The position numbers and the translations under genes were made by a program. A stretch of 64,000 nucleotides of DNA from Rhodothermales bacterium (GTDB lineage: Bacteria > Bacteroidota > Rhodothermia > Rhodothermales > VXPQ01). Each line of letters begins with the position of its first letter. Position 1 is the stretch's first letter. The stretch is taken from the NCBI GenBank assembly GCA_965232485.1, contig OZ246975.1:1067246-1131245 (forward strand), in the 5' to 3' direction. Positions 26,327 to 61,435 of this stretch are shown here, in pieces. Under the pieces are notes generated by a model. It saw only the letters and a program-made list of their open reading frames with translations. It ran no database searches and had not been told where the DNA came from.

Positions 26327-26347
26327 CTTTCTGTGGTCCGTTCATGA

Positions 26348-27048: not shown

Positions 27049-27230
27049 AAAAGCAAAACAGGGATGCGCGTTGTGGAGCGATGCGCTTGGACCTGCTTTC
27101 CAAATATCCCAAATTAATTAGAATAGATTAAATACACAGAGACATTCACGGCATTTATGCGATTCATCCGTATAATTCCCTGCAAGATGCAACATTGATT
27201 TTTTTGTCGAATATTGGTTATAAGACCTTT

Positions 27231-28103: not shown

Positions 28104-28168
28104 AAGGCAATAAGCAAGAATTGTTAAGAAAGAAAGGCACTATTCCAGAATGGCAAAACTTATTGTTA

Positions 28169-28702
28169 TTATATATTATATTTTTCCGCCAACCCCCTAA
28201 TCACATAGCCATCGGCATCTGCAAAAACCCATTGCATGATTGCTTCCTTATAGGGTATGCAGTATTCGGGATCTGGTTGAATCATGGCTACGATCCACAT
28301 GAGTGCATCAATGGCCGCTCCATGCGTTTCCATGTTTTCTCCGCGACGATACATAAATCCACCCTGAAAAGATTGAATTTTCCAGCCTATGCGCGAGATA
28401 ACCCTGCGATCATCCGAATCGTAGCAACCCAATATATGAATACGCAAGCCATTCTCGGCGAAAAATCGTCTTCCGTCATACGTCAACCGTATCAGAAAAT
28501 TCCTATCGATCTTATCGGGCGGGTAAAAGGGATTGTAGGACGGGAGTGATTCTTCGTATACGCGCTGAAATTCGTCCAGATGGCTGCGCATATCTCGATC
28601 GGCCTCGTAGTTACGGCGAATCTCCTGAATGTATTCGGCGAGCGCGGCAATCGGGTTATTCATTATTCCGGGAAATAGATAGCGTTGAAAAAGCGGACGC
28701 AA
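28169..28702 (-). CDS. Hypothetical 164-177-aa protein upstream of and co-directional with the DUF3883 gene
   Basis: Clean AT-rich ORF, 65-nt gap to the DUF3883 gene. Alternative start at 28663 (MNNPIAAL). No family recognised. Confidence 0.5.
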   Translation of the reverse strand: MRPLFQRYLFPGIMNNPIAALAEYIQEIRRNYEADRDMRSHLDEFQRVYEESLPSYNPFYPPDKIDRNFLIRLTYDGRRFFAENGLRIHILGCYDSDDRRVISRIGWKIQSFQGGFMYRRGENMETHGAAIDALMWIVAMIQPDPEYCIPYKEAIMQWVFADADGYVIRGLAEKYNI

Positions 28703-29045
28703 CAGCGGAGGAACGTTTATGCATTGGATTAAACGCCCTGCATAGCAATCTCTCCAGTCAGGATACGGCGTCCGGGGTTTTCTGTCAAGTAGAATCGGCC
28801 GGATTAGGCCCTTGCGCAGTGTTTGTATTTTCGCCCAGGATGCGCTCTAAATTTTTCCCGTCCGCTCTCTTCACCAAATTTTCCCGTAATCCCTTGCCTT
28901 TTAACGACTTGCAGGCGACCTGAAGGCCATTTCGAGATTGCGCCAATGGAAAAAATTTCGTATTTTATCGGGATATGGGCTTTTTCGGAAACCCTCCGGC
29001 GGGCCCAGGACATTTTCAGGCATTTCCAACCCCTGCGCAACCTGC

Positions 29046-44859: not shown

Positions 44860-44933
44860 CGTGCAGGAAGGTTTGGTCAGGTAAAAGGAGGGGCGACAAA
44901 TAAGGCGAACACCGAAAAGCAGGGAGGACATCG

Positions 44934-46466: not shown

Positions 46467-46629
46467 CGCGCGGCGGCAAGGCGGAACAAGAACGCCGGGC
46501 CCTGCGAGGCGAGCGGAGCGAGGCCCGAAACCCGGCGGGCGGAGCAAGCGAAAAAACAAGGTTTGTACGTCGGTCATGGGGTCTGCGGGAAAATGCAAGG
46601 GCTGCGGGAAAGCTCCTTTCTGTTTCCGG

Positions 46630-48918
46630 CTATAAACGATACGTGTAATTGAGTTTGAGCGACGCGCCCTGCGAAACGGTTCTCAAATCGCGGTTGTCGA
46701 ATAGCCCGGCGCCCCTGTTCTCCCAGTTGTGCCGATACACAAGGAAAATATTCGATCCCGGCTGCACGATCCAGCGTAGCCGGGCAAAAACCCCCGCCAG
46801 CTGGCTCACGTCATCGTACTGGATTTGCAATAATGCGGACACGAAGGGCGTCGGATCCCATTCGCCTTCAATTTCATAGACATTTGCGGTGAATGCGCCC
46901 CGAGGCAAGTCCACATCGTTATACCCAATGCTGGTCCCGATGCTGACGCCGGCGCTCGGACGAAATGTCGCGCGAACGGAAATCTCCGTACTGGAGCCAT
47001 CCCAGAATTCTCCCCATTCCACGCCGCCGTATACGGAAACCTTCCGCCTGCCCGCCGTGAAGCCGCCCACGGAATACCGCTGCACCGTATAGCCCCCTGG
47101 CAAAATATCCAGCCCGTCGCTGACCTCGAACGCATTGTAGAGTTCCTCAAAGCGCCGCGTAGCCTGGACGGACACGTTGTCGCCGCTTTCGAACTCGATT
47201 CCGAGCAGCTCCACCTCCCACTCCCGCTCTTCGGGAACGCCTGTATCCATAGCGACCAGATGCCGGTATTGCACCCCGAAGCCAAGCTGCCGTATCTGCT
47301 TGATCCGGGCGGGCCGGGGCTGCCAATTGATGCGCGGCTCGACGCGGCGAAAATTGTTGCGCTGCACGAAACCCACCTGCGGATCGTAATCGGCGCCGAA
47401 TTCCCGATAGGAAATATGCCCGGACCAGATATCGTTGGGGAAATTGAGGCGGAGGCCGCGCGCGGACAAGTCATTCAGCGATTTCGTACCCGGAGCGACA
47501 TTGGAGTTGGCGACGGCGAAGAGTTCGACTTCGGCGTTCTTGTCCCCCAGAAAATGCCGGGTCGCCAGTTGCACGTCCACGCCGAAAGTATGCCCGGTTT
47601 CCGGGGCAAAGCCCATGGCGTCTTCCGACCTGGCGCGGCGCGTATACATCGCGCCGATGGTGGACTGTTCGAAAACGGGATGCCGCACGCGGGCCACCGT
47701 AAACTGTTCATTGGGAATCTCGACGTTTTCCTCGTCTTCGTTCTGGTAAGTCAAATCCCCGACGCCTACCTGAAAAAAACCTACGTCGGTCTTGCCCGCC
47801 TGACCGGTCATGCGCACGCCATAGTTAATGGGCGCAGGTTGTCCATCCGTCAACCCAATGTTGCGCGAAAAGAACGGCGTGGGGTTGCTGCGCGGGGCGA
47901 AGGAAAAAATACCGGCGCCTTCCAGGAAAAATCCGCGCTGCTCGGGGAAGCGAAGCGGAAAGCGCGTCAGGTTCACGCGCCGCTGATCCGCCTCGACTTC
48001 GGCGAAATCGGTGTTGAACGAGAGCGAGGCGCGGAGACTGGGCGTTACGCTGTAGTTCAAATCCAGGCTGACGTCGCCGGGATACGTTACGGGATCGGCG
48101 TCCCCGGGCGTCTTGCGCCAGTTCCCGATGGCGGACGGAACCGCCTCCAGCCCAATGCCCTGCGACATATCCCGGAGACCAGTCAGTTCGCCCGCGAAAA
48201 TCGGACGCAACAAGCCTTCGTTGCGGCGCCACCCTCGCCAAAGCATTTCTTCGTTCGTACGCCGGATCGTGCGCTGGAAATTGACGCCCCATTCGTCCGA
48301 CGCCGGATCGAAATTCAGCGTCCGGAACGGGATGCTGACTTCCAGGGACCATCCGTCGGGGCGACGGGCCGTGCGTACGTCCCAAATACCGTTCCAGGCG
48401 CGGCCCCCACTGCGGAAAAACGAGGTACTGCCGCCGACAAGAAGCGCATCTCCCCGCATCCCGTTCGGATTCGTCTCGAAAAAGTACCCGGTGCGACCAT
48501 CCTGGAACGTGTCCAGAATCCACATGAACCGGTCGTCGGTATACAAAAAGGCGTCGCGGCGTTTCTGGTAAGCGATGACGCCATCGGGGTCGTCGTACAG
48601 GATGGCGCCAATGTACAGCCGATCCTTGTCGTACGCGATGCGAACTTCCGTCCGACGGGAAGGACGCGCCCCTTCGACCGGCTCCTGTTGCGTAAAGTCA
48701 TCGATCGGAACGGCTTGGCTCCAGGCCTCCTCCACGATGCGCCCGTCCAGATTGATCCGGTCCTCGTCGGCAAGCCGATGCGCCTGGAGCACAGGAAGCG
48801 CATCGTCTGCGGACGCCTGGGCGAATGTCGGGGCGGGCAACGTCACAAGAACGCACCCGACCAGCAGCAAGGACAGGACGGGAACGGACTTTAACGCGCG
48901 ATGCGAACGAAAATTCAA
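46630..48918 (-). CDS. DUF5916 / carbohydrate-binding-family-9-like outer-membrane protein
   Basis: Signal peptide, then ..INLDGRIVEEAWSQAVPIDDFTQQEPVEGARPSRRTEVRIAYDKDRLYIGAILYD..FETNPNGMRGD.., and a long beta-rich C-terminus ending ..KLNYTYRL. The start is a TTG at 48918. Confidence 0.7.
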   Translation of the reverse strand: MNFRSHRALKSVPVLSLLLVGCVLVTLPAPTFAQASADDALPVLQAHRLADEDRINLDGRIVEEAWSQAVPIDDFTQQEPVEGARPSRRTEVRIAYDKDRLYIGAILYDDPDGVIAYQKRRDAFLYTDDRFMWILDTFQDGRTGYFFETNPNGMRGDALLVGGSTSFFRSGGRAWNGIWDVRTARRPDGWSLEVSIPFRTLNFDPASDEWGVNFQRTIRRTNEEMLWRGWRRNEGLLRPIFAGELTGLRDMSQGIGLEAVPSAIGNWRKTPGDADPVTYPGDVSLDLNYSVTPSLRASLSFNTDFAEVEADQRRVNLTRFPLRFPEQRGFFLEGAGIFSFAPRSNPTPFFSRNIGLTDGQPAPINYGVRMTGQAGKTDVGFFQVGVGDLTYQNEDEENVEIPNEQFTVARVRHPVFEQSTIGAMYTRRARSEDAMGFAPETGHTFGVDVQLATRHFLGDKNAEVELFAVANSNVAPGTKSLNDLSARGLRLNFPNDIWSGHISYREFGADYDPQVGFVQRNNFRRVEPRINWQPRPARIKQIRQLGFGVQYRHLVAMDTGVPEEREWEVELLGIEFESGDNVSVQATRRFEELYNAFEVSDGLDILPGGYTVQRYSVGGFTAGRRKVSVYGGVEWGEFWDGSSTEISVRATFRPSAGVSIGTSIGYNDVDLPRGAFTANVYEIEGEWDPTPFVSALLQIQYDDVSQLAGVFARLRWIVQPGSNIFLVYRHNWENRGAGLFDNRDLRTVSQGASLKLNYTYRL

Positions 48919-48955: not shown

Positions 48956-49543
48956 CTAAATATAGTATCCGTCCGGCTTGCGTTCGAATCCTTTCGTCTT
49001 TATCTCCCCGGAACACGCCCCGCAAGAAACCTTGATGGGCGTCAGAACGCCCGGAATACGGTTTTCCCTGCCGCAACGGGGACACGCCGCCTGCCTCGGT
49101 TTCAGAGGTTGTTTCAGGTACCCTGCCCGCGGCGTTTTGCCAAGCGGAACGCCAAAGAGCACTCCCGCCCTGTCCAGCGCTTGCGTCACGACCGGAAGCG
49201 GCGCTTCGAAGAATTCCTTGCGCGGATTGATGCGGAAGTCTTTCAGCGCGCCATGAACCCACTTTTCGGCGGCGTCCCGGGGAGACACATGCACGAAATA
49301 CACGAGCTCGAAGTCCCTGTATACGGATGTTGACCCACTCAATTCCCCTACGCGCGCGAAAGGAACGCGAGAGGATTCCCCCACTTTGAATACAGGATTG
49401 ACAAACGACTCATTGCGAGCAACGTAAAGCCAGCCGACTTTTTTGTATTCCCTCCTCCGTCTGTCGCAACTTTGTATCGCAAGGAAACTACTCAAAATGT
49501 CGTCCTGCAATAACAACTCCAGAGAAAGGTTTTTAGACCTCAT
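48956..49543 (-). CDS. T5orf172 (GIY-YIG-superfamily-like, MUG113-type) domain protein with C-terminal zinc ribbon
   Basis: GWLYVARNESFVNPVFKVGESSRVPFARVGEL..FELVYFVHVSPRDAAEKWVHGALKDFRINPRKEFFEAPL, then CPRCGRENRIP..VSCGACSGEI. The ATG at 49543 overlaps the end of the MotA-like gene by 11 nt. Confidence 0.7.
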   Translation of the reverse strand: MRSKNLSLELLLQDDILSSFLAIQSCDRRRREYKKVGWLYVARNESFVNPVFKVGESSRVPFARVGELSGSTSVYRDFELVYFVHVSPRDAAEKWVHGALKDFRINPRKEFFEAPLPVVTQALDRAGVLFGVPLGKTPRAGYLKQPLKPRQAACPRCGRENRIPGVLTPIKVSCGACSGEIKTKGFERKPDGYYI

Positions 49544-50237
49544 ATCGCTCGGGGACTTCTTTCCTGGCCAATCCGTAGGCGATGGCGACCGCCCACGTCT
49601 GGAGTTCCTTGTACCGTCTGCGCACCTGCGCCTGCAGAAAAATGTTGATCGGCCACAAGAGAAGGCGCACGCACATCGCCAGCATCGTCGAAACGACTGC
49701 AATGCCCAGCCCCACCAGGTCCGAAGCGGCATGGCGACTGCCGCTCGTGAAGAGTATGAATATGCCCCATAGCGTCCCGAGTAGCCCAAGACTAAGCGCA
49801 ATGTAGACCACGGCCGTGATGTACCTGTCTACCTCTTTGTAATTATCGTGATCGAATCCGATGTAACGCAACGCGTAATCGAGCATGTTCTGCGGCGTGC
49901 CTCCCCGCCCCTGCTCTTCAAGCAATCGCTCGCCTGCGAGACGATAGGGATTGTTTGGGCGCACCGCAACGATCGCCGCCTGAAAATCCCGCGCCGTCAG
50001 CCCGGAAGGCTCGATCCGCAACAACGCCCGCGTGCCTCTCCACTGACGGAAATAGCGCACATAAGCCGAGCACAGGAAGAAAAGCCCTATCAAAAAAGCA
50101 GCGGCGAGCGGGTACTCGAAACCCTGTGCATAGCCGAACAAGTCCCATATCGAGGTGGCGAGAAAACTGCTCCCTATATCCTGCGAGGGCAAAGCGAGCG
50201 TAGTGTCCGCGGCCTGGGGCGAAACAAATTGCATCAT
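49533..50237 (-). CDS. MotA/TolQ/ExbB-family proton-channel-like protein
   Basis: Three TM segments in the canonical arrangement. Signature ..IALSLGLLGTLWGIFILF..DLVGLGIAVVSTMLAMCVRLLLWP.. Confidence 0.75.
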   Translation of the reverse strand: MMQFVSPQAADTTLALPSQDIGSSFLATSIWDLFGYAQGFEYPLAAAFLIGLFFLCSAYVRYFRQWRGTRALLRIEPSGLTARDFQAAIVAVRPNNPYRLAGERLLEEQGRGGTPQNMLDYALRYIGFDHDNYKEVDRYITAVVYIALSLGLLGTLWGIFILFTSGSRHAASDLVGLGIAVVSTMLAMCVRLLLWPINIFLQAQVRRRYKELQTWAVAIAYGLARKEVPERYEV

Positions 50238-50328
50238 CGTGTTGACGGTAAGTACGAAATGAAAGAAAGCATGGCGAGACCAGCAAGGACGAAGAGGATA
50301 GTAAAGAAATTACGTACCCGGTTTTGCG

Positions 50329-52854
50329 TCAAGGTTTTACAAGTACATTCTGGACAGACCCATCTTCCACTTCGATCTCTCGGGTAAAGGCCTGCAGGTC
50401 TTCCCGACCAAGCAGATCCCTGAGTTCAAGGCGATAAACGCCGGGCGGCAAAAGAACTGAGAATAAAGCTTCTTGAGATACTTCGGAACTCAGCACTTCT
50501 TCATTTCCCCGAAAGAAAACGACGCTGGCCTGCGTGGGGGAGCTCAGGGGCAAATCCTCAATGACTCCCTGCACGATGGTGTTCCTCTCCACGGGGATAT
50601 CAACGCGCTTCGTCGATCCGGGATCCGATATGAAACTGAACGTCGTACCCGTAGGCAGATGCAGCGAAGGATCGGTCAAGGACGCCGGGTCGATGATAAC
50701 CTGATACGCCGTACTGGGCGCCAGAAAATCGGCGCGCACCACGGTCGAGTCCACGCGCTGGACACGGGCTTTGACGACCTTGATATCGAGGCCTTCCACC
50801 AGCGACTCTTCCGGCCCCCTGCGACCGTCCCGATCTACGTCGTAGTAGGCTTGCAGGAGCGCGCTGCTTCGCATGTGAGCCTGACGACTGAAACGCATGG
50901 GCCGTCCCAGTTCCATGGAGCCATAGAAACTCTGCCGGTGATAATAGGAGCCCGACTCCATCGACGAATGATTGTTGAGGCTCACCCACGGGGCGTCGAA
51001 GCGCAACGTAACGGAGAACTCTGCGTTTTCGCGGGCAAGATCATAGCCGCCGCGCAAGCCAATGGATACTTTCTTGTAGTACGCGTACAATGTCGCCCCT
51101 GCAAAATCGAATTGCTCCTGCAACCCCCCGTCGGCTTGCAGCCCGAAGCGGCCGCGCAGCCCCTTGCGGGAAACGGCTCGCGTTAGCGTGGTCCTCCAGT
51201 TCATGGAAATATCTTCCGACGCCATGTCCGTTTGCCTGCGCGACGCGCCAACCGTAACGAGTGCGCTGGTCTTGCCCGGAAGCGGCAATGTCGTGGAGCC
51301 GGTCACATTCAGGTTTTTGCTGCCGAAAAACGTTTCGACCTGCGAGCCATTCAGAAAAAGGCTCAGCCGCCGCACGCCCAAACCGATCTGTCCCTGAATC
51401 CGTCTCTTGTAGAACGAAAGCATCGGCTCGTCGGAAAATTCGGCTTCCGTTTGCAGGGACACGCGACCGATGGACATGCGCATGGAGGCTCGCGCGGCTT
51501 TCAGGGGCAATGCAACCTCGACGCCTGTGGTCAAAAAGCCCCACTGGTTACGCGTCAAGCCAACCATCGTGGTCGTGAGCGAATCAAGGCGTATGAAGGC
51601 GGCCTTCGCGGATAAACTCTGGCCGAGGCCGTAGCGAAGTTGCCCGAACCCGAAGAGGGTTTCTTCGAAACTGTCTCGCCCTGCCTGCACATCGTACCAA
51701 AGCGCTCCGGGGGGCAACAGTTCCTCCCCGATGAAAAGATGGCGCGTCACGGTGGTGGGAGCGCCTCCGCCCGGAGGAACAATTTCCAGCAACGCCTGCG
51801 AAGAGCCGTAATAGGCGGGAATGCGCAGTTCGTAGCGCCCTTGCGCATCCGCCCGGACGCGATCCGCAAGCACCCCGCCCACCGAAGCGGCGATAACGGC
51901 GTCGGGCTCGGCGATCCCGCGGATGACCGCTTCCCGCTGGATGTCCCGCAACGAAAGGGGGATGTTGCTCAGGCGAAAGCCGTCGAAGGTCGTGCGAAGC
52001 GGCCATTCGTACATGTTCATGCGCCCGAGTTCCATGCGCTTGAGCACGGGAGAACTCGGAAAATCAAGCAAATAGTTCAGCGAACGAAACCGCGTGGTCA
52101 TTTCCCCCTGGACCACCGACATAAATCCTTCGGTGGCGAGGCGCCCGCCCAATGCGTTCGAATGCACCCGGAATCCTCCATTGTAATCAGGCGAGTTCAG
52201 CGAGCGGTCGCTGCGCGTCAGGCGATAGTTGATGTGCGTGTTGCCCAGTAAGCGGCGGGAACGGCCGTAGAGCATCGGGCCGCGCACATGGTCGCTGGAA
52301 GGGGCCGACCTGCTAAAAATAGAACTGTCCAGCGACGCCATGGTCGTAGAAAGCCTGATGTGCAGCGTCGAGGTATCGAACTGCATGGAGCCTGGCGTGA
52401 AAATCGCCTGTACGCCTTCCAGTGAAACGTAGTAGCTCCCTTCGCTTGTAAAAAAGTCGTCGGGGGCCAGTTCCAAAGGCTCCATCGTGTCCTGCAATAC
52501 GCGGCCCGTCGAAAAATCGACTGTAAATACGCGTCCCGGATCGCTGGCCTCAACCATCGAATCCCGCTCTACGACGTCAAAACCGAGCCGGTCGAAAAAA
52601 TCTGTAATGTCAAGATAATATTTTTCGATCCCGGCGTCCCACCAGGCCAAGACAAAACTCGAAGAATGCAGGGCGCCCGGCGCGCTGATCGTCCAGGGGG
52701 TCTCCTGCAAAAACCGAACAGGCCTTTCCACGCCCGGCGCATCCTGCTCCTGCGCAAACGCCCGGGGACAATACGCCGCAACAAACAGTAGCGACATACA
52801 GAATACCCGACAAAGCCAGGCATGCCTTGATAAAAACGGCAACAAATTCATCAT
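50329..52854 (-). CDS. 841-aa secreted, beta-rich protein (outer-membrane barrel/usher-like?) with carboxypeptidase-regulatory-like modules
   Basis: The ATG at 52854 gives a signal peptide ..LLFVAAYCPRAFAQ. Alternating beta-strand-like pattern through most of the length. C-terminal ..VQGVIEDLP..VVFFRGNEEV..LLPPGVYRLELRD. No family recognised with confidence. Confidence 0.55.
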   Translation of the reverse strand: MMNLLPFLSRHAWLCRVFCMSLLFVAAYCPRAFAQEQDAPGVERPVRFLQETPWTISAPGALHSSSFVLAWWDAGIEKYYLDITDFFDRLGFDVVERDSMVEASDPGRVFTVDFSTGRVLQDTMEPLELAPDDFFTSEGSYYVSLEGVQAIFTPGSMQFDTSTLHIRLSTTMASLDSSIFSRSAPSSDHVRGPMLYGRSRRLLGNTHINYRLTRSDRSLNSPDYNGGFRVHSNALGGRLATEGFMSVVQGEMTTRFRSLNYLLDFPSSPVLKRMELGRMNMYEWPLRTTFDGFRLSNIPLSLRDIQREAVIRGIAEPDAVIAASVGGVLADRVRADAQGRYELRIPAYYGSSQALLEIVPPGGGAPTTVTRHLFIGEELLPPGALWYDVQAGRDSFEETLFGFGQLRYGLGQSLSAKAAFIRLDSLTTTMVGLTRNQWGFLTTGVEVALPLKAARASMRMSIGRVSLQTEAEFSDEPMLSFYKRRIQGQIGLGVRRLSLFLNGSQVETFFGSKNLNVTGSTTLPLPGKTSALVTVGASRRQTDMASEDISMNWRTTLTRAVSRKGLRGRFGLQADGGLQEQFDFAGATLYAYYKKVSIGLRGGYDLARENAEFSVTLRFDAPWVSLNNHSSMESGSYYHRQSFYGSMELGRPMRFSRQAHMRSSALLQAYYDVDRDGRRGPEESLVEGLDIKVVKARVQRVDSTVVRADFLAPSTAYQVIIDPASLTDPSLHLPTGTTFSFISDPGSTKRVDIPVERNTIVQGVIEDLPLSSPTQASVVFFRGNEEVLSSEVSQEALFSVLLPPGVYRLELRDLLGREDLQAFTREIEVEDGSVQNVLVKP

Positions 52855-53032
52855 GGTCTCTGAACAAACGTTTCCTGGCTTGTTGTGGGTTCTTTGTTTG
52901 TGGCGGCGCCTGCGCTTTCCGGCGCATTCCGCGAAACCGGCGCAGGCGCTAAACGAAACGCCGACCGTACGACATAAACATGTTCTTGCGCTATCCATAT
53001 TCTTGACCGCGCCATAATGCGATATAACGCTT

Positions 53033-54565
53033 CTATTCATCGGAGCCTGCATCGCGCAACGCCCTGTATCGCTCCAGGAGAACCTGCGCCTTGTCCCTGT
53101 CTCCAACCCGCCGGTACAGATTGCCCATAAGGGTGAGGTAGGCCAACTGATCCTCTCGCTCCATCGCGTCGAAAACTTCTTCGACCCGGGGTTCAAGCGA
53201 CAGCGCCTGCTCCGGATTGTAGCGCGCGAGCTGCAACGCTTCGACAAAAGCCCTGCCGGTATACTGACTTCGCACTTCCGTGACCTGCATCAGATAGGTA
53301 AATGCAAGGGCGGAAGAGCCCTCCCGACGATGTTCCTGGGCGCGCGTGAAAAGGACCGTGGCGTACGTTTGTCGAATATCTTCCACGAATTCGGGGTACG
53401 GCGTTTTTTGCGCGACCGTACTGTCCTCGACAATGCCCCAAAGAACCTGCAACGTGTCCAGAGCGGCTTCCTGGCCGTTGTGCTCCCAATTGAGCAAGGC
53501 ATGGTTGTAACTTGCTTCCAGTCGCGAGGAGGTTTGCGTAAGGCGAGGGATCAACCAGGCCAAGCCTGCCCGGGCGGCGAGCGGATCGGTCGAAAACAAG
53601 GTTTGCAGACTGTCGTAGGCCAACCGGTTTTCGAAATGATGATGATCCCACAGGACCCAGTCCATTTCCCGTCGGGAAAATTCTTCCTGCTCGGCGGTGG
53701 TCGCATGCTGTTGCGCCTCGGACAGCGCACGGCGCACCCCCTCTCCGTCCCGGTTTTCGACGAATGCGCGATACGAACGGACATAATAGGTGAAAAGCGC
53801 CAGGCTGTCCGGCGACGGACGTTCCGCATCCGGCGCAAAAGCAAGGAACGCGTCGTCCAGAACGACTTCCGCCGCCTGTAACCAGGTGAGCGCAGCGCCG
53901 GAAAACTGATTCATATTTTCCAGAACCACGGCCACTTCCGCCCACAGGACGTGATCGTCGGCGCGGAGCGCCAGCAACCCGCGCAACAACGCGAGCATCT
54001 CTTCCCATGCCCCTTCCTCCTTGAGCCATTGCGCCCGCACGCTATAGACCTGGGCCAACTGGTGGCGGGCTTCCTCGTGCAGCGGATTAAAAGCCAGCGC
54101 GCTTTCGAAAAAACCCTGAGACTCGGCAAGCAGCGTTCGAACAAGCAGGCTATCCTCTTCCGTCTGGGCCTGCGCCGCGCGTATGAGCCTGCGGCGGGCT
54201 TCCGTATGGGCTTCCGTAAACGCCGTCGTATCGACCGCGACCATGGAATCCCCCGGCGCATCCAGCGACTCCAGCGGGGGGGCTCCGTTCAGAATGCGCA
54301 AGGTGCTGTCTATGCGCTCGAACAAGGCGCGTCCAGCCAGAAAATCCTCCTCTGCCCGGGTTTCCGCCGAGGCGCGCACGAATGTGCCGTGGAACGAATT
54401 CAACACGTCTGCAATAACCAGACTGTCCACCCCGGGAAGCGGCGGCGAAACCGGATCCTCGGAAACCGGCTCGCTTTCGACAATAACCGGCGCGGAAGAA
54501 CCGCACCCCCACAGGAAGGCGAGACACAACATGCCCGCTGCTAAAAAGAGCGCTGATCGGTACAT
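53033..54565 (-). CDS. Helical-repeat (TPR-like) lipoprotein
   Basis: MYRSALFLAAGMLCLAFLWGC (lipobox), then alpha-helical repeat composition throughout. Confidence 0.6.
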   Translation of the reverse strand: MYRSALFLAAGMLCLAFLWGCGSSAPVIVESEPVSEDPVSPPLPGVDSLVIADVLNSFHGTFVRASAETRAEEDFLAGRALFERIDSTLRILNGAPPLESLDAPGDSMVAVDTTAFTEAHTEARRRLIRAAQAQTEEDSLLVRTLLAESQGFFESALAFNPLHEEARHQLAQVYSVRAQWLKEEGAWEEMLALLRGLLALRADDHVLWAEVAVVLENMNQFSGAALTWLQAAEVVLDDAFLAFAPDAERPSPDSLALFTYYVRSYRAFVENRDGEGVRRALSEAQQHATTAEQEEFSRREMDWVLWDHHHFENRLAYDSLQTLFSTDPLAARAGLAWLIPRLTQTSSRLEASYNHALLNWEHNGQEAALDTLQVLWGIVEDSTVAQKTPYPEFVEDIRQTYATVLFTRAQEHRREGSSALAFTYLMQVTEVRSQYTGRAFVEALQLARYNPEQALSLEPRVEEVFDAMEREDQLAYLTLMGNLYRRVGDRDKAQVLLERYRALRDAGSDE

Positions 54566-54586
54566 AAACCTAAGAACTCAGGGGAA

Positions 54587-54958
54587 TCAGGAAGGTGGCG
54601 TTTCAACCAGAACAAGAAATACGGCCTGTCGTTCAGCCTGCTGAACAAGATTGTTCGCCGTAAGAAGCAATCTGGCGGGAGCATTCTTGTCGGCCGAGAA
54701 CTCAACCATGCGGTCCGGATGGCTCGAAACCATCAGGGTATAGAGGTCGTTGGGATCGAGCAGAACGGGAGACCCTCCGCCCTCAGTGGCGAAAAACATT
54801 CCGTCCTCGGATATGGCCACCTGAAGAGGCTGGAGCATGGGCATTCCAGGTTCCGCTTCCTGACTCAAGGGCTTGGCTACGTCAAACGTGGATATGGTGC
54901 TGATCGCCACCAGCGTAGCCAGCAAAATGAGCACGATATCCACCAGAGCATCGTCCAT
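54587..54958 (-). CDS. ExbD/TolR-like biopolymer-transport protein
   Basis: N-terminal TM DALVDIVLILLATLVAIS, then ..QVAISEDGMFF.. and ..VEFSADKNAPARLLLTANNLVQQAERQAVFLV, matching ExbD periplasmic-domain layout. Confidence 0.7.
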   Translation of the reverse strand: MDDALVDIVLILLATLVAISTISTFDVAKPLSQEAEPGMPMLQPLQVAISEDGMFFATEGGGSPVLLDPNDLYTLMVSSHPDRMVEFSADKNAPARLLLTANNLVQQAERQAVFLVLVETPPS

Positions 54959-54964
54959 TTTCGA

Positions 54965-56086
54965 TTACATGTTTTGTTTTTCCTGCTGCCACCAGGCCAG
55001 GAAAAGTTTGAAGAAGTCTCTCGCTTCGGGACCTGTGGGAGAAAAATCCTCGCTCTCTACGAAATCGATGCGTTCCATGGCGTCCCTGCCGACGACGCCC
55101 TTCTGAAAATACTGGGCGCGCTGCTGGAATCCGGGGTCGACGAAGTAGTAGATGTCGCCTTGCCGGATCATGGCGATCCGAATTTCCCTGTTGGAGGGCG
55201 TGAACATAAGCTGGAGTTCGGCAGACGAGGCAGCGGCGGAGGTTTGGCTCCTGGCGCTGATCGCCGGAGGAGCAAAATGAAAAAGCGATCGGATCCCGGG
55301 ATCCAATTCGGCTTGATTCACCAAAATCCATTGCAAAAGAGAATCCGATGGAATGGAAACATCCTCTTCGCCCAGAAACAGGTTGTCCTGACGGGATCCG
55401 GAATCAGAGGATTCCAGCGACGTCCCCTCTGCGGAGGTGGCCCGGATCGTTTGCCGCCCGGACCCGTCGGGCCAGGCAAGATCCTCCAGATCCCCCACAT
55501 AGCGGCGGGAACGGTCCGTATCGTCCGGGGAAGCAAACGACTGGCCGATAAGATTGGACGACAAGGACCGCGAAGAACGGGATGGATTTCCCGAATCGTT
55601 CAGCAGATTCTGCGTCAGGTCCATATCGGAATTAAAAACGGGACGATCAGAAGCCGATTCGGAAAAAAGCTCCATATCCTGATCCGACAGCGAAACAATC
55701 TCCCGGTCTTCCAGCTGCGCCACGGCGTCGTCGAGCGATACGTCGGAAAAGGAAAACGATTCGAACGCATCGGCGACCAGCGCCTCGACGTCTTCCTCCA
55801 GCAGCTCCTCTACCGGCTCGGGTTCGAGGGATTCGGTAATCTCTTCGATCACTTCGAGAGGATCTTCTTCTTCCTCAAGAGGGTCCGCTTCGATTTCTAT
55901 TTCTTCGACGGGGGGTAATTCCAGACTCGTCAAAACAAGCCTTTCTATCGTCGTCTCGGCGAATTCCCGTCCGGGCGTGGGAATCAGGGTGAACGCCACG
56001 CTAAAAAAAACGGACATGCCCAGAAACAACAGCCACGAAATGCGGCGGTTTCTCCTTTCCTCCTGTGCGGCAAAGGACAATGCCAT
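54965..56086 (-). CDS. Membrane-anchored protein with Glu/Pro-rich spacer (TonB/TolA-like architecture, unrecognised C-terminal domain)
   Basis: TM ISWLLFLGMSVFFSVAFTLI. Spacer ..ELPPVEEIEIEADPLEEEEDPLEVIEEITESLEPEPVEELLEE.. The C-terminal ~100 aa lacks the TonB C-terminal motif as far as I can see. Confidence 0.5.
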   Translation of the reverse strand: MALSFAAQEERRNRRISWLLFLGMSVFFSVAFTLIPTPGREFAETTIERLVLTSLELPPVEEIEIEADPLEEEEDPLEVIEEITESLEPEPVEELLEEDVEALVADAFESFSFSDVSLDDAVAQLEDREIVSLSDQDMELFSESASDRPVFNSDMDLTQNLLNDSGNPSRSSRSLSSNLIGQSFASPDDTDRSRRYVGDLEDLAWPDGSGRQTIRATSAEGTSLESSDSGSRQDNLFLGEEDVSIPSDSLLQWILVNQAELDPGIRSLFHFAPPAISARSQTSAAASSAELQLMFTPSNREIRIAMIRQGDIYYFVDPGFQQRAQYFQKGVVGRDAMERIDFVESEDFSPTGPEARDFFKLFLAWWQQEKQNM

Positions 56087-56110
56087 GGCGCAATGAAACG
56101 CTGATTGCTT

Positions 56111-56494
56111 CTAATTACTGACGGTGCACCGCCAACTTCGTCGGGTGCACAGATCAAGCATGGCCACCATTTGCTGAACGGTGGCTCTGCCTTGCGGGGC
56201 AAGCACAAAAGAGACTTGGCTGTCCAGTCTCCATGCCTGCTCCATGCAAGCGGCAAGCTCTACGAGCGTTGCGGGCGAGCAGGCTTCTATTCTTTCCGGC
56301 AACCATAACATCATAAAATGCATGCGGTCGTCAAACTGGACCTCATACGCAAGCGAAGGAGCGCTGGCTTCCTGCGACTCGCTCGGCAACACCACCTCCG
56401 CCTGACTTTCCGTCTCGGTCAACATCAGAAACCCCACAAGGAGAATGAATCCGAGATCAATGAAAATCAGCATGTCGGCGCGATCGTTTTCCAT
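56111..56494 (-). CDS. ExbD/TolR-like biopolymer-transport protein (second copy)
   Basis: The ATG at 56494 gives MENDRADMLIFIDLGFILLVGFLMLTE (ExbD-type TM). ..VSFVLAPQGRATVQQMVAMLDLC.. matches the ExbD C-terminal pattern. Confidence 0.65.
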   Translation of the reverse strand: MENDRADMLIFIDLGFILLVGFLMLTETESQAEVVLPSESQEASAPSLAYEVQFDDRMHFMMLWLPERIEACSPATLVELAACMEQAWRLDSQVSFVLAPQGRATVQQMVAMLDLCTRRSWRCTVSN

Positions 56495-56508
56495 GACGTA
56501 CGGATTTA

Positions 56509-57357
56509 TTAACAGGAACGGGCAACAACGTCGCCGGCTCTGGTCATGTTTTCGACGACGACGCACCCTTCGCTGTCGATGTATGAACTAATTTCCGGTT
56601 GTTTATACATCCTGACCACCAGCGGCTCCCCCGTCTGCAAGCCGGGATGGATGCACTGGGTGGCCTCGGGCTTGAAGGTCCAAAGGTCCTCGTCGTAGTT
56701 CCAGAACGTCATATGGACGTCCTCGCCCCGCTGAACAAGGTGGACTTCCATAGGCCCCTCGGGGTAGTAATGCAAAAGAGAGCCCAGCATAGCCCCGGCA
56801 AGAGCTTTTTTGGGATCCGACTCTCCTTCCGCTTCGCTGGCCAGAAGAATGCTTCTGTCGCGCACGGTATTGATTCGATAGTCCGTTTCGAGATTCAACG
56901 CAACCAGCGTGTTGAGCATGGCTTCCGGGAGGTACGAACTCAACGTAAAATGTTCCCTGGCGGGATAGAGCACAAGAATATCGTTCGAGCCGAATCCGTC
57001 TTCCGTGATATCCATAAAGACCGCATGGGTATACTCGGGATCGTTCGGAAAGATGATCTGATCTTCCAGAAAACGACCTATGAATTCCAGGTCATACACC
57101 TCGGCGACAGGAACGACGCGCTGATTCGCCATTGCTTCCTGCCCGCGCGCGACGCGGGAGGGCAAAAGCAACAGGATCGAGAAAACAAGAATGCGCCCCG
57201 CAATACGCGCGAAAGACAGGGGACGGGCCAGGGAGCCGAGGCGCCCCGAAGTTTTGCCGTTGCGGCCTGTCGACGCCGCTGCCGGGTAGCGATCATGCGT
57301 TCCGGCGGGTACGTCGCAAGCGCCCGGCTTGTTGTCCATTGAACAGAACATGTGCAT
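56509..57357 (-). CDS. Hypothetical secreted/anchored protein, first gene of the cluster
   Basis: Hydrophobic N-terminal segment ARIAGRILVFSILLLLPSRVARGQ. No family recognised. 14-nt gap to the next gene. Confidence 0.5.
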   Translation of the reverse strand: MHMFCSMDNKPGACDVPAGTHDRYPAAASTGRNGKTSGRLGSLARPLSFARIAGRILVFSILLLLPSRVARGQEAMANQRVVPVAEVYDLEFIGRFLEDQIIFPNDPEYTHAVFMDITEDGFGSNDILVLYPAREHFTLSSYLPEAMLNTLVALNLETDYRINTVRDRSILLASEAEGESDPKKALAGAMLGSLLHYYPEGPMEVHLVQRGEDVHMTFWNYDEDLWTFKPEATQCIHPGLQTGEPLVVRMYKQPEISSYIDSEGCVVVENMTRAGDVVARSC

Positions 57358-57891
57358 TGCCAGGAATGGTTCGTAAAATCCGGGATTCAGCGGTTCCCGG
57401 CGCGTTTTTCAGGCGCAGCGCCGCACCGGGACATATTGATCGCCTGGATGAACCGCTGGCGTATAATATACCGCGAAAAACGGGTTTATCAAACAAGTTA
57501 ATGAGAACATTTTGCGGGCTCCGGCGATTTTCCGGGGCGAGCGATCAGACAGCGAAGCGACGGACCATAAACAAAGCGATCTCTCGCCGGACGGTTGCCT
57601 AAAAAATTAAGGAAACGAAAATAGAGGGTTAACTAATTAAGGATGTTCTTTGTCCGGAGCCGCGCCTATGTCTCGCCCGTCTCTTTCATCCCTGCGGGGC
57701 GCATTCCACGAAATCGACGCCGACCCGGACATGCGCCCCGATCCGCTTCGCGAAAACTTCTTTGCGTTCCGGACTCGCCAATCTTGACAATCTCGCATGA
57801 ATAGCCGTACTTACAGGGCAAGGCGGGCGCCGGTTTTGCAAAATATTATCAGGACAGGATACCCTGATTCTTCAAGCCGGTTTTTATACGC

Positions 57892-57967
57892 GGGGCCATA
57901 GCTCAGTTGGTAGAGCGCTACAATGGCATTGTAGAGGTCAGGGGTTCGATTCCCCTTGGCTCCACCA
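57892..57967 (+). tRNA. tRNA-Ala (anticodon GGC), CCA encoded
   Basis: GGGGCCA-TA-GCTC-AGTTGGTA-GAGC-G-CTACA-ATGGCAT-TGTAG-AGGTC-AGGGG-TTCGATT-CCCCT-TGGCTCC-A-CCA. The cloverleaf folds by eye and carries the G3:U70 alanine identity pair. Confidence 0.95.
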
Positions 57968-58075: not shown

Positions 58076-58987
58076 TTATCGCATGGGTTCCACATGCGCC
58101 GCCTCTGGACGCCAGGCCCTGCCGACGGGCGCCCACGGAGGCGCCACTTCCTGACGAATGCTCCCCAGCCGCTCGATTTCCAGGTCCACCACATAGCCTA
58201 CCCGCAGATACTTCGGGGGCGTCATGCCCAGTCCGACGCCTTCCGGCGTACCCGTGGACAAAATATCTCCCGGGAGCAGCGTCATAAAGCGGCTCACATA
58301 GCTTATGAGAACGGACGCCGGGAAAATCATATCCCCGGTCGAACTGCGCTGCATCTCTTCGCCGTTGAGCGTAAGCCGCATGTCCAGGTTCTGTACGTCG
58401 GGAATCTCGTCCGGAGTAACGAGCGCAGGGCCTATCGGGGAAAACGTATCGCAACTCTTCCCCTTCGCCCACTGCCCGCCTCGTTCGATCTGGTAGGCCC
58501 GTTCGGAAACATCGTTCATGATCGAATAGCCCGCCACATAGTCCAGCGCCTCGCTTTCCGAAACGTATTTCGCTCGCCGTCCTATGATCACGGCCAGTTC
58601 GATTTCCCAGTCGGTTTTTCTGGAGCCGCGCGGCAGGACGATGGGATCGAACGGCCCGCTGAGCGACGAACTCGCCTTCATGAACAACACCGGCTCCTCC
58701 GGCGCAGCCATCTTCGACTCCCTCGCATGCTTGTGGTAATTCAGTCCGACGCATACGATCTTGCTCGGTCGAGCGACCGGCGGCGCAAGACGCTCGCCCG
58801 CATCGACCCGGGGCGCCTCGGCGGCCCGCCCCGCTTCAAGCCATGTCCGCAGCCGAGCCATGCCGCCTCCGTCGAAAAACGCTTCGTCGTAGTCGCGGGC
58901 CGCGGCGGAAGCGTCCACGCAGGTTCCGTCCGCAAGCAAAAGGCCCGGCTTTTCGGCGCCGGGCGAACCGAATCGAATGAGTCGCAT
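58076..58987 (-). CDS. Fumarylacetoacetate hydrolase (FAH) family protein (2-keto-acid hydratase / diketo-acid hydrolase type)
   Basis: ..KIVCVGLNYHKHARE..EPVLFMKA..DWEIELAVIIGR..GYSIMNDVSER..W.KGKSCDTFSPIGP..GDILSTGTPEGVG. Confidence 0.9.
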   Translation of the reverse strand: MRLIRFGSPGAEKPGLLLADGTCVDASAAARDYDEAFFDGGGMARLRTWLEAGRAAEAPRVDAGERLAPPVARPSKIVCVGLNYHKHARESKMAAPEEPVLFMKASSSLSGPFDPIVLPRGSRKTDWEIELAVIIGRRAKYVSESEALDYVAGYSIMNDVSERAYQIERGGQWAKGKSCDTFSPIGPALVTPDEIPDVQNLDMRLTLNGEEMQRSSTGDMIFPASVLISYVSRFMTLLPGDILSTGTPEGVGLGMTPPKYLRVGYVVDLEIERLGSIRQEVAPPWAPVGRAWRPEAAHVEPMR

Positions 58988-59014
58988 GGAATAAGAATAG
59001 CGGATTCGTATGGA

Positions 59015-59821
59015 TCAAGGGCGCAGTGAAATGGAGCCCCCGTCTATGGGGAAAAGCGAGCCGGTCACGAAGGACGCCTCATCCGAGCACAGGTACAGCG
59101 CGAGGGCCGACACTTCTTCCGGGGTCCCCATCCGGCCCATAGGCTGCGCCGCCGCAAGCCGGTCGTACGCTTCCTGTTCCCGGCCCGGATAATTCCGGGC
59201 GAGATACCCGTCCACGAACGGGGTATGAATGCGCGCCGGGGCAATGGCGTTGCACCGAATGCCCTCCCGCACATAATCGCAGGCCACCGAAAGCGTCATG
59301 GCGAGCACGGCGCCCTTGCTCATGGAATAGGCAAACCGATCCGGAATGCCGATAACCGACACCGTCGAAGCCATGTTCGCGATGGCGCCGCCCCGCCCGA
59401 GCATGCCCTGCACCGCGGCCCGAAGGCAATGGTACGCGCCCTTGACGTTGACCTGGTACACCCGGTCGAAATCCTCTTCGGACGTCGTCGCCGCGGCGCC
59501 CACATGGGACACGCCCGCATTGTTGAAAAGGACATCCGGCGGGCCCATATCCGCGGCGACGGCCCGAAAGGTTTCGCGCACCGCCTCGCCGTCGGCCACG
59601 TTGCAGGCGTAAAAAATCGCCGACGGCCCGATATCGGCGGCCAGCGCCTGCCCGGCTTCCTCGTTTACGTCCAGCAACGCGAGGCAGGCGCCTTCCCGCG
59701 CAAACAACTCCGCCGTGGCCTTGCCGATCCCCGAAGCGGCTCCGGTCACTACGGCGGTGCGGCCCGCAAGCCGTCCGCCCTCGCGCATGTCAGAAGCAGG
59801 CGAATGCATAACCGGATTCAT
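59015..59821 (-). CDS. Classical short-chain dehydrogenase/reductase
   Basis: GRTAVVTGAASGIGKA..NNAG..SKGA (YxxxK: YSMSKGA). The ATG at 59821 overlaps the upstream sulfatase TGA (ATGA). Alternative start at 59788. Confidence 0.9.
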   Translation of the reverse strand: MNPVMHSPASDMREGGRLAGRTAVVTGAASGIGKATAELFAREGACLALLDVNEEAGQALAADIGPSAIFYACNVADGEAVRETFRAVAADMGPPDVLFNNAGVSHVGAAATTSEEDFDRVYQVNVKGAYHCLRAAVQGMLGRGGAIANMASTVSVIGIPDRFAYSMSKGAVLAMTLSVACDYVREGIRCNAIAPARIHTPFVDGYLARNYPGREQEAYDRLAAAQPMGRMGTPEEVSALALYLCSDEASFVTGSLFPIDGGSISLRP

Positions 59822-61296
59822 TCTTCGATGAGCGCGTCGAGCTGGATGGGCCAGGGATTCAGCCCCGCCCGATGCTCCGCCACGCGCGCCATAATCTCTT
59901 CCAATACCTCCGGGCGCTCCGCGGATAAATCGAATCGCTCGGCCGGATCGTGCTCCAGATGATTCAGGATGGGCGGATCGCGCGGCGCGGGATCGTCCCC
60001 GACGTAGGCCCGCTGCGTGATAAAATGGGCTTTCCAGGGACCCACGCGCGCGGCGAAAATGCGCGTACCCCGGTAATACAGAATCATGTCGTGCGCCTCC
60101 TCGTCGCTGCCCCGGAGGATATGCCCGATATCCATCCCGTCTATGACCCGATCGTCCGGAACCGGCGCGCCCGCCATGCCCAGCGCCGTGGGAAACACAT
60201 CCATGGCCGTCACCAGCGCCGAATTGACCACCCCCTCCGGGATCATGCCGGGGCGCCACGCCAATGCAGGCACCCGCATGCCGCCCTCGTACGTGGTGCC
60301 CTTTCCGTCTCGCAAAAGCCCCGCCGATCCGCCGTGCGTCCGGAAAATCAGCCAGGGGCCGTTGTCGCTCGTAAAGAAAACGAGCGTGTTCTCCGCAATG
60401 CCCTCTTCTTCGAGCGTTTTCATGATCTGCCCCACGCTCCAGTCGATCTCTTCAATCACGTCTCCATAGAGGCCCGCCTTGCTGCGTCCGGCGAACGCGG
60501 CGCTGCGAAAAAGCGGCGTGTGCGGCATGCTGTGCGCCAGATACAGGAAAAACGGCTCGGCGGCATGGTCCTTAATGAAAGCCACCGCCTCCTGCGTATA
60601 CCGGCGGGTAATGGTTTCCTGATCGACCGGGCGCTCAATGATTTCCGTATCGCGCAGGAGCGGCACGTTCCAGTATTCGGATTTGGGGTCCCAGAAAATT
60701 TCCTGCCATTCGCCGCCTGCGACGCGGTCCATGTCGTTGGAATAGGGAATCCCGTAATACGAATCAAATCCGTGATTGGTGGGCAAAAACGGTTTGAGGT
60801 GGCCAAGATGCCACTTGCCCACCATGCCGGTCGCATACCCAACGCCCCGGAGCGCTTCGGCGATCGTAATTTCGCGATCCGGCAAACCGAGCCGGGAATC
60901 CGGAAAAAAGACCCGGCGACGGTCGCTGACCATCCCGCTCCGGATCGGCAGGCGGCCGGTAAGCAGCGCAGCCCGGCTGGGCGTACACACCGAAGCGCCC
61001 ACGTAAAACTGGGTGAATTTCATTCCCTCCGCCGCCATGCGGTCCAGATTGGGCGTACGGATGGTCGGATGTCCGTATGCGCCGATATCGCCGTAGCCGA
61101 GGTCGTCCGCAAAGATGAGCACCAGGTTCGGGGGACGATCCTCCTGCGCCGCCGCCGGGGCGCAGGCAAACGCCGTCAGCGCGGCGAGCAACGCGGCGCA
61201 GGCGGAAACGCGGGCGAAAGCGGCGGGGCGACGAAACGCCGACCGCGCCGCGCAAAGGATAGCGTACAACTTCAAAGCAACGGGGCTGATATTCAT
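59818..61296 (-). CDS. Sulfatase (arylsulfatase-A-like, Cys-type)
   Basis: Signal-like N-terminus from the ATG at 61296. NLVLIFADDLGYGDIG..ASVCTPSRAALLTGR..GKWHLG. Confidence 0.9.
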   Translation of the reverse strand: MNISPVALKLYAILCAARSAFRRPAAFARVSACAALLAALTAFACAPAAAQEDRPPNLVLIFADDLGYGDIGAYGHPTIRTPNLDRMAAEGMKFTQFYVGASVCTPSRAALLTGRLPIRSGMVSDRRRVFFPDSRLGLPDREITIAEALRGVGYATGMVGKWHLGHLKPFLPTNHGFDSYYGIPYSNDMDRVAGGEWQEIFWDPKSEYWNVPLLRDTEIIERPVDQETITRRYTQEAVAFIKDHAAEPFFLYLAHSMPHTPLFRSAAFAGRSKAGLYGDVIEEIDWSVGQIMKTLEEEGIAENTLVFFTSDNGPWLIFRTHGGSAGLLRDGKGTTYEGGMRVPALAWRPGMIPEGVVNSALVTAMDVFPTALGMAGAPVPDDRVIDGMDIGHILRGSDEEAHDMILYYRGTRIFAARVGPWKAHFITQRAYVGDDPAPRDPPILNHLEHDPAERFDLSAERPEVLEEIMARVAEHRAGLNPWPIQLDALIEE

Positions 61297-61435
61297 AACT
61301 TGGCTGTGTTCAGGTTCGTTTAGCCATACGATTCCGGGTCGCGAACGCGCCTGTCCGGGCTGTTTTCCGGCGCAATGGCGCGAGGCGAACAAGGCGCTCT
61401 GCATATTCTGCAAGATACATTCCGTACGATCCGCC

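Follow-up and report, generated by a model that had tools for sequence, protein, structure and literature searches.

A conserved ExbB/ExbD-type motor cluster with an usher-like outer-membrane protein in Rhodothermales: a candidate trans-envelope force-transduction system

Introduction

The roles known for motors of the ExbB/ExbD type are chiefly import (Ton), upkeep of the envelope (Tol) and gliding. Chaperone-usher secretion is the standard example of transport across the outer membrane without energy input: passage through the classical usher is paid for by the folding energy of the subunits, there being no energy source at the outer membrane. What, then, would an ExbB/ExbD-type motor do in a gene cluster that holds no recognisable TonB and no TonB-dependent transporter? 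This question is raised by a stretch of 64,000 nucleotides from a Rhodothermales bacterium (assembly GCA_965232485.1, contig OZ246975.1, positions 1,067,246-1,131,245 of the forward strand), which we call the window. Eight minus-strand open reading frames (ORFs), running from 57357 down to 48956, were described there from the letters alone as a possible envelope machine driven by the proton-motive force (PMF), closer in logic to Agl-Glt or Tol than to Ton; we refer to this description as the original prediction. We name the ORFs G1-G8 in transcription order (Table 1), use L-numbers for the loci and contigs compared with the window, and call the giant Ig-repeat protein of its relatives BIG.

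Below we report that G1-G7 are conserved together, that three of them carry the marks of a proton-driven motor and that G6 is predicted to have the fold of a fimbrial usher. On this evidence we judge the chances evenly balanced that G1-G7 encode one trans-envelope machine performing motor-driven export or assembly of a surface adhesin through G6.

Results and Discussion

G6 is predicted to be a fimbrial-usher homologue

The 841-residue protein G6 had been listed as a partner that could not be recognised, and its sequence indeed gives no usher match in Pfam or in a PDB profile search; by fold, however, it falls in with a characterised family. A structural model of G6 was built with AlphaFold2 (AF2) from an alignment of 31 homologues. 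When the model was compared with the PDB using Foldseek, the top 19 matches were all FimD or PapC, the best of them, 3rfz_B (E 9.1e-27), extending over the whole length, and against pore-only PapC/FimD structures the target TM-score was 0.56-0.63. The next unrelated barrels appeared at E>1e-6 and the first TonB-dependent transporters, BtuB and FemA, at ~3e-5, leaving ushers as the sole strong structural matches. The predicted domain order is likewise that of an usher, with an N-domain, a 24-strand barrel into which a plug-like Ig domain (a beta-sandwich) is inserted after strand 6, and two C-terminal beta-sandwich domains. As modelled, G6 is a fimbrial-usher homologue with the full usher domain architecture, and the originally noted absence of a TonB-dependent transporter from the unit was borne out.

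Two details of G6 deserve mention. Its plug region resembled a Bap Ig repeat (E 1.9e-4, PDB sequence profile), and an N-terminal tail directly following the signal peptide, RFLQETPWTIS (within 52675-52725), holds six invariant residues (R47, Q50, E51, P53, W54 and S57), which makes it a candidate docking site. The protein is also rare, with only 35 homologue clusters among 5.8 billion proteins.

A predicted proton-driven motor with two ExbD-like subunits

Profile searches placed G2, G4 and G7 in the families first proposed for them. G7 scored above the gathering score of Pfam MotA_ExbB (31.6 bits, cut-off 22.9), and both G2 (E 1.2e-4, residues 6-118 of 127) and G4 (E 5.3e-5, near-full-length) came just under that of Pfam ExbD. 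The conserved Asp looked for in the transmembrane (TM) segments of the ExbD-like proteins was found in both of them: Asp13 of G2 (codon 56456-56458) is invariant in 47/47 family members, distant modules included, and Asp7 of G4 (codon 54938-54940) in 42/42, again with the distant ones. G4 aligned full length to E. coli ExbD (6tyi_Y), its Asp7 standing opposite the Asp of the ExbD TM segment FIDVMLVLL, which we take to be ExbD Asp25. In G7, which has three TM segments, the conserved Thr expected of a MotA-like channel occurs as Thr155 (49773-49775) and Thr184 (49686-49688); both stand in motifs, G-L-L-G-T155 and S-T184-x-L, that show no variation in the family alignment, and in the comparison of the G7 profile with PDB sequences the two residues lie opposite the Thr of GMIGTLVG and ALLTTLYG in TM3/TM4 of PomA.

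Single-sequence PDB searches with G7 and G2 gave no match, and the G7 profile matched PomA (3.7e-4), ExbB (3.3e-3), TolQ (9e-3) and MotA (0.014). Since the G7 family is about equally distant from these four, its sequences mark it as a deep offshoot of the MotA/ExbB/TolQ superfamily and not as an ordinary ExbB. Together, G7, G2 and G4 show the sequence features that typify a proton-driven motor of the ExbB/ExbD type, here with two distinct ExbD-like subunits.

Seven genes are conserved as a unit

A scan of GTDB species genomes yielded 36 loci, all in metagenome-assembled genomes (MAGs) of uncultured Rhodothermales, Rhodothermaceae or unclassified Bacteroidota and with up to four copies per genome, in which G1-G7 are syntenic at 37-84% identity. 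The order G1-ExbD-G3-ExbD-TPR-(BIG)-G6-ExbB recurs in essentially every locus, and G7 lies directly downstream of G6 in all of these Rhodothermales loci but one. Because seven genes are conserved in 36 independent loci, chance juxtaposition is ruled out, and the predicted co-occurrence across genomes is upheld. There were two exceptions to the order: in L022 (10004-22463) G6-G7 and BIG-G1..G5 form separate units that converge on each other, and L026 is a reduced copy that keeps only BIG, G1, G3 and G6. These two loci suggest that G6-ExbB can be separated from G1-G5 as a sub-unit of its own and that some of the paralogues are decaying.

The eighth gene, which the original prediction had counted in the unit, behaves differently. 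At the same site G8 is absent from L005 and L010, present in L006 and L008, and replaced by unrelated genes in distant clusters; as an indel among close relatives that is absent from distant ones it is not part of the unit, of which the other seven genes stand. G8 has a T5orf172 domain at 49169-49435 (Pfam T5orf172, E 1.2e-9; MUG113, 2.8e-7) and matches the PADLOC candidate PDC-S57 (1.6e-15) and also PD-Lambda-1. It is probably a defence-related accessory insertion outside the machine, and looks like a small mobile defence-type gene lodged 3' of the ExbB homologue. For G1-G8, NCBIfam added no family beyond the Pfam calls.

The carriers come partly from sponge-derived MAG series, and SB06xx bins are listed among the sponge-associated Entoporibacteria (PMC7883664). 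In L002, L034, L035, L036 and L039 a giant LRR/He_PIG protein of >2200 aa precedes the cluster (first ~3 kb), and the genome CATQHT01 has four paralogous clusters with the preceding LRR/He_PIG giant.

A giant Ig-repeat protein accompanies the cluster in most relatives

The output of the machine, which had been left entirely open, is not wholly so, since relatives carry a giant Ig-repeat/DUF4402 protein within the cluster. This protein, BIG, was found inside or beside most clusters; it is secreted, measures 973-3033 aa, and consists of Ig/PKD-like repeats followed by a conserved C-terminal region of ~450 residues, DUF4402 being detected in 5/22 of these C-termini (best E 1.7e-5). Its gene is situated 5' of G1 or between G5 and G6, the latter being its site in the closest relatives of the window.

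In the contigs L040 and L041 the gene for a G1-like protein is grouped with genes for two DUF4402 proteins (180 and 171 aa), a secreted protein of 260 aa, one of 741 aa, a DUF4402 protein with two domains, ExbB, two ExbD, a protein of 315 aa and a TPR protein. Their genes were assigned in L040 with family hidden Markov models (HMMs) of the window cluster and of the BIG C-region. The 741-aa protein matched G6 (E 2e-110), ExbB matched G7 (E 2e-32), the ExbD of 122 aa G4 (E 2.6e-22) and that of 120 aa G2 (E 5.7e-28), the 315-aa protein G3 (E 3.5e-29) and the TPR protein G5 (E 1.6e-54). The 171-aa DUF4402 protein matched positions 28-170 of the BIG C-region (E 1.4e-25), and the 260-aa protein matched positions 217-438 (E 1.6e-39), corresponding to the last ~220 aa of BIG. 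Since L040 holds the parts of the BIG C-region as separate DUF4402 and 260-aa proteins, BIG is, judged by sequence, Ig repeats fused to a DUF4402-like domain and the 260-aa module. Searches of NCBIfam with the L040 proteins and the BIG parts gave no match.

This arrangement, the start of which is repeated in contig L075, puts small secreted DUF4402 (Ig-like) proteins and the secreted 260-aa protein just 5' of the usher-like gene. Classical chaperone-usher operons have the order small Ig-like subunits, secreted chaperone of ~250 aa, usher, so that the 260-aa protein sits at the chaperone position. In L040 (774-10004) the small-subunit system comes immediately behind a full Trb/VirB set of type IV secretion genes, TraG among them, and may sit on an integrative conjugative element. 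A tblastn search of annotated plasmids with G6 and a DUF4402 protein found no match.

In the window the BIG gene is missing. The segment of L006 that holds BIG and a copy of tRNA-Ala (5649-10006) had no counterpart by blastn between window positions 53038 and 52773, and L013-L015 and L037 are likewise without BIG nearby. The tRNA-Ala gene that borders the window cluster has a 93% match at L006:9393-9484, inside the cluster, between BIG and G6, so that the tRNA took part in a local rearrangement that accompanied the loss of BIG.

The motor module extends beyond Rhodothermales

All families of the unit but G6, that is ExbB, the two ExbD, the G3-like, the G5-like TPR and the G1-like protein, make up a six-gene module. 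In addition to the G1 relatives L042 and L043, we found 31 metagenomic loci with the G1-domain motif, and family HMMs detected all six families in the window, L040, L042, L043 and 11 of the metagenomic loci. Where the contig is long enough the order is fixed, namely ExbB, ExbD (G4 type), ExbD (G2 type), G3-like, G5-like, G1-like, relative to which the window order is rearranged. The module contigs (L042, L043 and metagenomic) range in GC content from 0.42 to 0.72, many of them being Bacteroidota-like and of uncultured origin, and one cluster of module-type G1-like proteins is named 'Bacteroidetes bacterium' by NCBI. Neither G6 nor BIG was found in L042, L043 or the 31 metagenomic loci. At six module loci the two genes directly 5' on the same strand encode a giant adhesin, in which FG-GAP repeats, Ig domains of the ASH/HYDIN type and CARDB occur together with a CHU_C domain, and a PorP/SprF-family outer-membrane protein of ~600 aa. 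What the window holds is thus a widespread module in rearranged order, one that recurrently has an outer-membrane barrel protein and a giant surface adhesin next to it, and in Rhodothermales the barrel partner of the module is, according to the model of G6, usher-like.

In L042 (4735-6378), L043 (5236-6606) and L046-L073 the ExbB homologue is 406-785 aa long; the long homologues have a Pro-rich linker and Big_1/Invasin_D3 Ig-like domains after TM3, an unusual feature in a part of the protein that should be cytoplasmic.

The transducer candidate G3 and the partners G5 and G1

G3 had been described as having TonB/TolA-like topology with no TonB C-terminal domain, and both halves of that description agree with our results, Pfam, PDB sequence and Foldseek searches having given no TonB or TolA match. 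It is built of an N-terminal TM helix, an acidic disordered linker of ~190 residues and a globular C-terminal domain. In an alignment of 27-29 homologues the TM segment is conserved, the linker variable and the C-terminal stretch of ~125 residues well conserved, with W253, D262, Y313-Y314-F315, E346-D347-F348-S349 and W365-W366 invariant. The AF2 model was confident only for the TM helix and the C-terminal domain (pLDDT 70-90 in the latter), which it folded into two short helices, a six-stranded antiparallel sheet and a long helix. No Pfam family matched G3, and its profile found 0 matches at E<=10 among PDB sequences. Thus G3 has a TonB-like topology and a conserved C-terminal domain that is not TonB_C.

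The assignment of G5 as a TPR lipoprotein also stood up. Pfam gave weak matches to TPR_17/9/7, and the signal peptide is followed by L-W-G-C with the lipobox Cys21 at 54503-54505; orthologues likewise carry a Cys after the signal peptide. The family HMM detected G5 orthologues in every distant module (E 1e-29 to 1e-64).

G1, whose gene is always the last in the six-gene module, has an N-terminal domain of ~180 aa with the motif D-x-T-x-[DN]-G-F-G-x-N-D ... Y-P and, in the alignment, three conserved Cys near the C-terminus. Its start codon is uncertain, the hydrophobic segment lying ~50 residues into the ORF and homologues beginning right at the signal peptide. There are 24 close homologue clusters, and a deep search with the G1 HMM collected 80 representative clusters at E<=1e-3 over profile positions ~15-197, no Pfam family being found among these 80. 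G1 itself had no match in Pfam, NCBIfam or PADLOC, and a PDB profile search returned nothing meaningful. In proteins P0104, P0127, P0107, P0115 and P0119 a G1-like domain occurs in fusions, some with a C-terminal segment that resembles an outer-membrane beta-barrel and ends in Phe, others with repeated EF-hand/dockerin-like modules.

How the cluster may work

In the machine we propose, proton flow through G7/G2/G4 would generate force that G3, spanning the periplasm, would take from the motor, and G5 and G1 would help to connect it to the plugged pore G6. The force would open the plugged G6 or drive the passage of a string of folded Ig-like domains, and G6 would export, hold or pull the resulting beads-on-a-string surface adhesin. 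As the adhesin gene appears to have been lost from the window cluster, its substrate may be encoded elsewhere or the window may hold an idle copy. A more specific version, put forward tentatively and at rather less than an even chance, is that of a PMF-energised usher in which a dedicated ExbB/ExbD/ExbD motor and a non-TonB transducer drive gating or passage. Such an usher would export covalent 'single-chain pili' of up to 3000 residues, and the system would form one branch of a larger, not yet described group of motor modules, found in Bacteroidota and Rhodothermota and devoted to giant adhesins.

A number of results weigh against motor-driven export through G6. The model of G6 is of moderate confidence (pLDDT 72, pTM 0.51), and the usher homology is structural only, since G6 did not match Pfam Usher and a PDB sequence profile search returned no usher. 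A PapD-like chaperone was not detected: hhalign gave the chaperone-position module a probability of <1% (0.3-0.6%, not significant, for the 260-aa/BIG C-terminal module against unverified PapD/FimC sequences), and G1 had no match and looks mixed and non-Ig. Searching all 64 kb of the window by tblastn with BIG proteins gave no match. DUF4402 was not mentioned in the literature searched, and the family is itself uncharacterised. Most of the distant modules are without any usher, and the task of the motor therefore need not be usher gating. As for the transducer, the G3 C-terminal domain had no Foldseek match in the PDB at E<=1e-3 (the best was CapZ, E 0.03, with neither TonB nor TolA found), and in the alignment its TM segment has no His, unlike the SHLS motif of TonB/TolA. 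That G3 couples to both the motor and G6 is therefore a supposition drawn from its topology and from synteny, and the contacts between the proteins and the direction of the work (export, retraction or gating) are likewise putative.

Alternative explanations

Instead of exporting an adhesin the motor might act on one already in place, moving or tensioning it in gliding or contraction, with no secretion, while it is held by G6 or a PorP/SprF-like protein, as in Agl-Glt or GldLM/SprB; we regard this as unlikely, though as the strongest of the rival readings. Agl-Glt comprises one TolQ-like and two TolR-like proteins (AglR/AglQ/AglS in Myxococcus), TonB-like periplasm-spanning proteins, TPR proteins, outer-membrane barrels and a surface adhesin, and the cluster likewise has one TolQ-like and two different TolR-like subunits, a TPR protein and a TonB-style protein, while its module repeatedly neighbours giant adhesins. 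The six non-Rhodothermales loci in which the module directly follows the genes for a CHU_C adhesin, of type B of the type IX secretion system (T9SS), and a PorP/SprF-family protein speak for the same explanation, for the gliding proteins SprF/SprB of Flavobacterium make up just such a pair, and a CHU_C adhesin would leave via T9SS, so that the motor would not be needed for export there. The window, however, has neither of these two genes and has G6 in their place, and the usher fold is a translocon fold. Cytoplasmic components are absent, no track or regulator gene being found in the cluster; motility would not be expected of carriers that are partly sponge-derived; the outer-membrane partner here is usher-like; and beyond the motor no homology to Agl-Glt was seen, no test aimed at it having been made.

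Uptake is the usual role of ExbB/ExbD in Ton systems, and G3 could be a very divergent TonB and G6 an energised importer with a pulled plug, for instance for sulfated glycans. The ExbB-family channel and the ExbD-family subunits with their essential Asp and Thr are shared with Ton, as is, in the models, a membrane-anchored long-linker protein directed at a plugged outer-membrane barrel, and sulfatase genes lie on both sides of the cluster. We nevertheless consider this explanation improbable. G6 matches ushers (E 9e-27) and not TonB-dependent transporters (~3e-5), which have 22 strands and an N-terminal plug compared with 24 strands and an internal plug; G3 lacks TonB_C and the TM His; the G7 subfamily is no closer to ExbB than to PomA, TolQ or MotA; and there are two different ExbD paralogues and the obligatory partners G1 and G5. 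Moreover, the sulfatase genes do not accompany the cluster in distant loci; its conserved neighbours are Ig-repeat/DUF4402 proteins. Still less credit is due to Tol-Pal-like envelope maintenance by TolQ/TolR/TolA/CpoB analogues, which we think very improbable. It would fit the TolQ/TolR-like motor, a G3 with TolA-like topology and a TPR lipoprotein resembling CpoB, which one study argues to have been ancestrally a lipoprotein (PMC12204202). By contrast, Pfam and NCBIfam gave no match to TolB, Pal or OmpA-like proteins in G1-G8, the C-terminal domain of G3 is not TolA-like, and the cluster, of which a genome may have as many as four copies, is in every case linked to an usher-like protein or adhesins. 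Finally, the adjacency of a MotA-like gene to a T5orf172 nuclease-like gene could be read as anti-phage defence of the Zorya kind, in keeping with the PADLOC matches of G8 and a faint ZorA match of G7 (E 0.072). We rejected this reading as scarcely credible: G8 is accessory and not conserved with the cluster, G1-G6 have no PADLOC match, G2 and G4 are ExbD-like, and the partners are exported or outer-membrane proteins. Zorya would further be expected to show a ZorA with a long cytoplasmic tail, ZorB, and ZorC/D or ZorE, whereas G7 has only 234 aa.

Relation to known systems

Despite the usher fold we have not filed the cluster as a chaperone-usher system, because G6 does not match the Pfam family, being without a sequence-level usher signature, and no PapD-like chaperone was demonstrable. 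In addition, the presumed Rhodothermales substrate is one giant tandem Ig-like polypeptide in place of non-covalent subunits, and the usher-like gene is hard-wired to an ExbB/ExbD motor. The operon and synteny logic is shared with the vWA force transducers described by Williams-Jones et al. 2025 (PMC12204202), in which a TM segment, a linker and a C-terminal vWA domain are encoded beside TPR, tolQ and two tolR genes in Bacteroidetes, Rhodothermaeota and other phyla. Compared with these, G3 has a small helix/six-strand-sheet/helix domain at its C-terminus and not vWA, and has no His of the SHLS type; the G1 family and the usher-like or PorP-like partners fall outside that description.

In full-text searches that reached few subscription journals, most lying outside their coverage, we found no paper treating an usher and ExbB/ExbD as one system (among the 15 listed of 50 that name both), none joining 'usher-like' with TonB and Bacteroidetes, and none treating PorP/SprF and ExbB/ExbD as a unit. 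The six-gene module is not described in the literature searched, and is a candidate new trans-envelope force-transduction system. Taken together, the results support the general idea of a PMF-driven envelope machine nearer to Agl-Glt and Tol than to Ton, and the system would be a relative of PMF-driven force transduction of the Ton/Tol/Agl-Glt type that is new in its pairing with an usher-like pore. If this is true, an usher-type pore can couple to the PMF, and very large folded-domain adhesins have a new route across the outer membrane. Because the carriers are partly sponge-derived, have up to four copies and show LRR-rich giant neighbours, the system may matter for host attachment.

Layout and setting of the cluster

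An ORF check of the window found all eight minus-strand ORFs where they had originally been placed. The gaps G1-G2, G2-G3, G3-G4 and G4-G5 measure 14, 24, 6 and 21 nt, the gap between G6 and G7 is 91 nt, and G7 and G8 overlap by 11 nt. The coordinates are collected in Table 1.

Table 1. Coordinates of the cluster genes, their predicted parts and adjoining features in the window
Feature	Position	Strand	Description
G1	56509-57357	-	Exported or anchored 282-aa protein, family without Pfam annotation
G2	56111-56494	-	ExbD/TolR-like, type 1, 127 aa; Pfam ExbD
G3	54965-56086	-	373-aa candidate TonB-style force transducer, from topology
G3 TM helix	~55976-56044	-	N-terminal
G3 linker	55352-55924	-	Acidic, disordered
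G3 C-terminal domain	54971-55348	-	Globular
G4	54587-54958	-	ExbD/TolR-like, type 2; Pfam ExbD
G5	53033-54565	-	510-aa TPR-containing lipoprotein; weak TPR matches and lipobox
G5-G6 spacer	52855-53032	-	178 nt; site of the BIG gene in closest relatives
G6	50329-52854	-	841-aa outer-membrane protein, predicted fimbrial-usher fold
G6 signal peptide	52753-52854	-	
G6 N-domain	52351-52713	-	Residues 48-168 (AF2)
G6 barrel strands 1-6	51967-52248	-	Residues 203-296 (AF2)
G6 plug-like Ig domain	51739-51942	-	Residues 305-372 (AF2)
G6 barrel strands 7-24	50908-51702	-	Residues 385-649 (AF2)
G6 C-terminal beta-sandwich domains	50338-50865	-	Two domains, residues 664-839 (AF2)
G7	49533-50237	-	234-aa MotA/ExbB/TolQ-family proton-channel subunit; Pfam MotA_ExbB
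G8	48956-49543	-	T5orf172 (GIY-YIG-like) protein with C-terminal Cys-pair segment
Sigma-70-like promoter match	57463-57492	-	10/12 consensus positions, 5' of G1; consensus match only
tRNA-Ala(GGC)	57892-57967	+	ARAGORN; borders the cluster

Scanning the region for promoters and terminators was uninformative, the counts being near those of shuffled sequence (6 sigma-70-like sites compared with 3.5 +/- 1.6 in shuffles, not clearly above) and the consensus possibly not being that of the phylum, whose promoters may differ. The lower GC content noticed in the original prediction (0.573 in the cluster compared with 0.616 and 0.631 in the flanks) and the adjoining tRNA gene were both confirmed, but they do not mark a recent genomic island, a reading ruled out by the collinearity of both flanks with L006 (81-84% nucleotide identity).

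Around the cluster (43084-48918 and 58076-61413) lie the three sulfatase genes, a gene for a CBM9/DUF5916 protein and a FAA-hydrolase gene; a DUF5916 gene is also found near the six-gene module in L043, which may be coincidence. Elsewhere in the window, at 26000-29000, the GC content falls to 0.43-0.47 over ~3 kb compared with a window mean of 0.60, and this low-GC stretch may be a foreign insertion.

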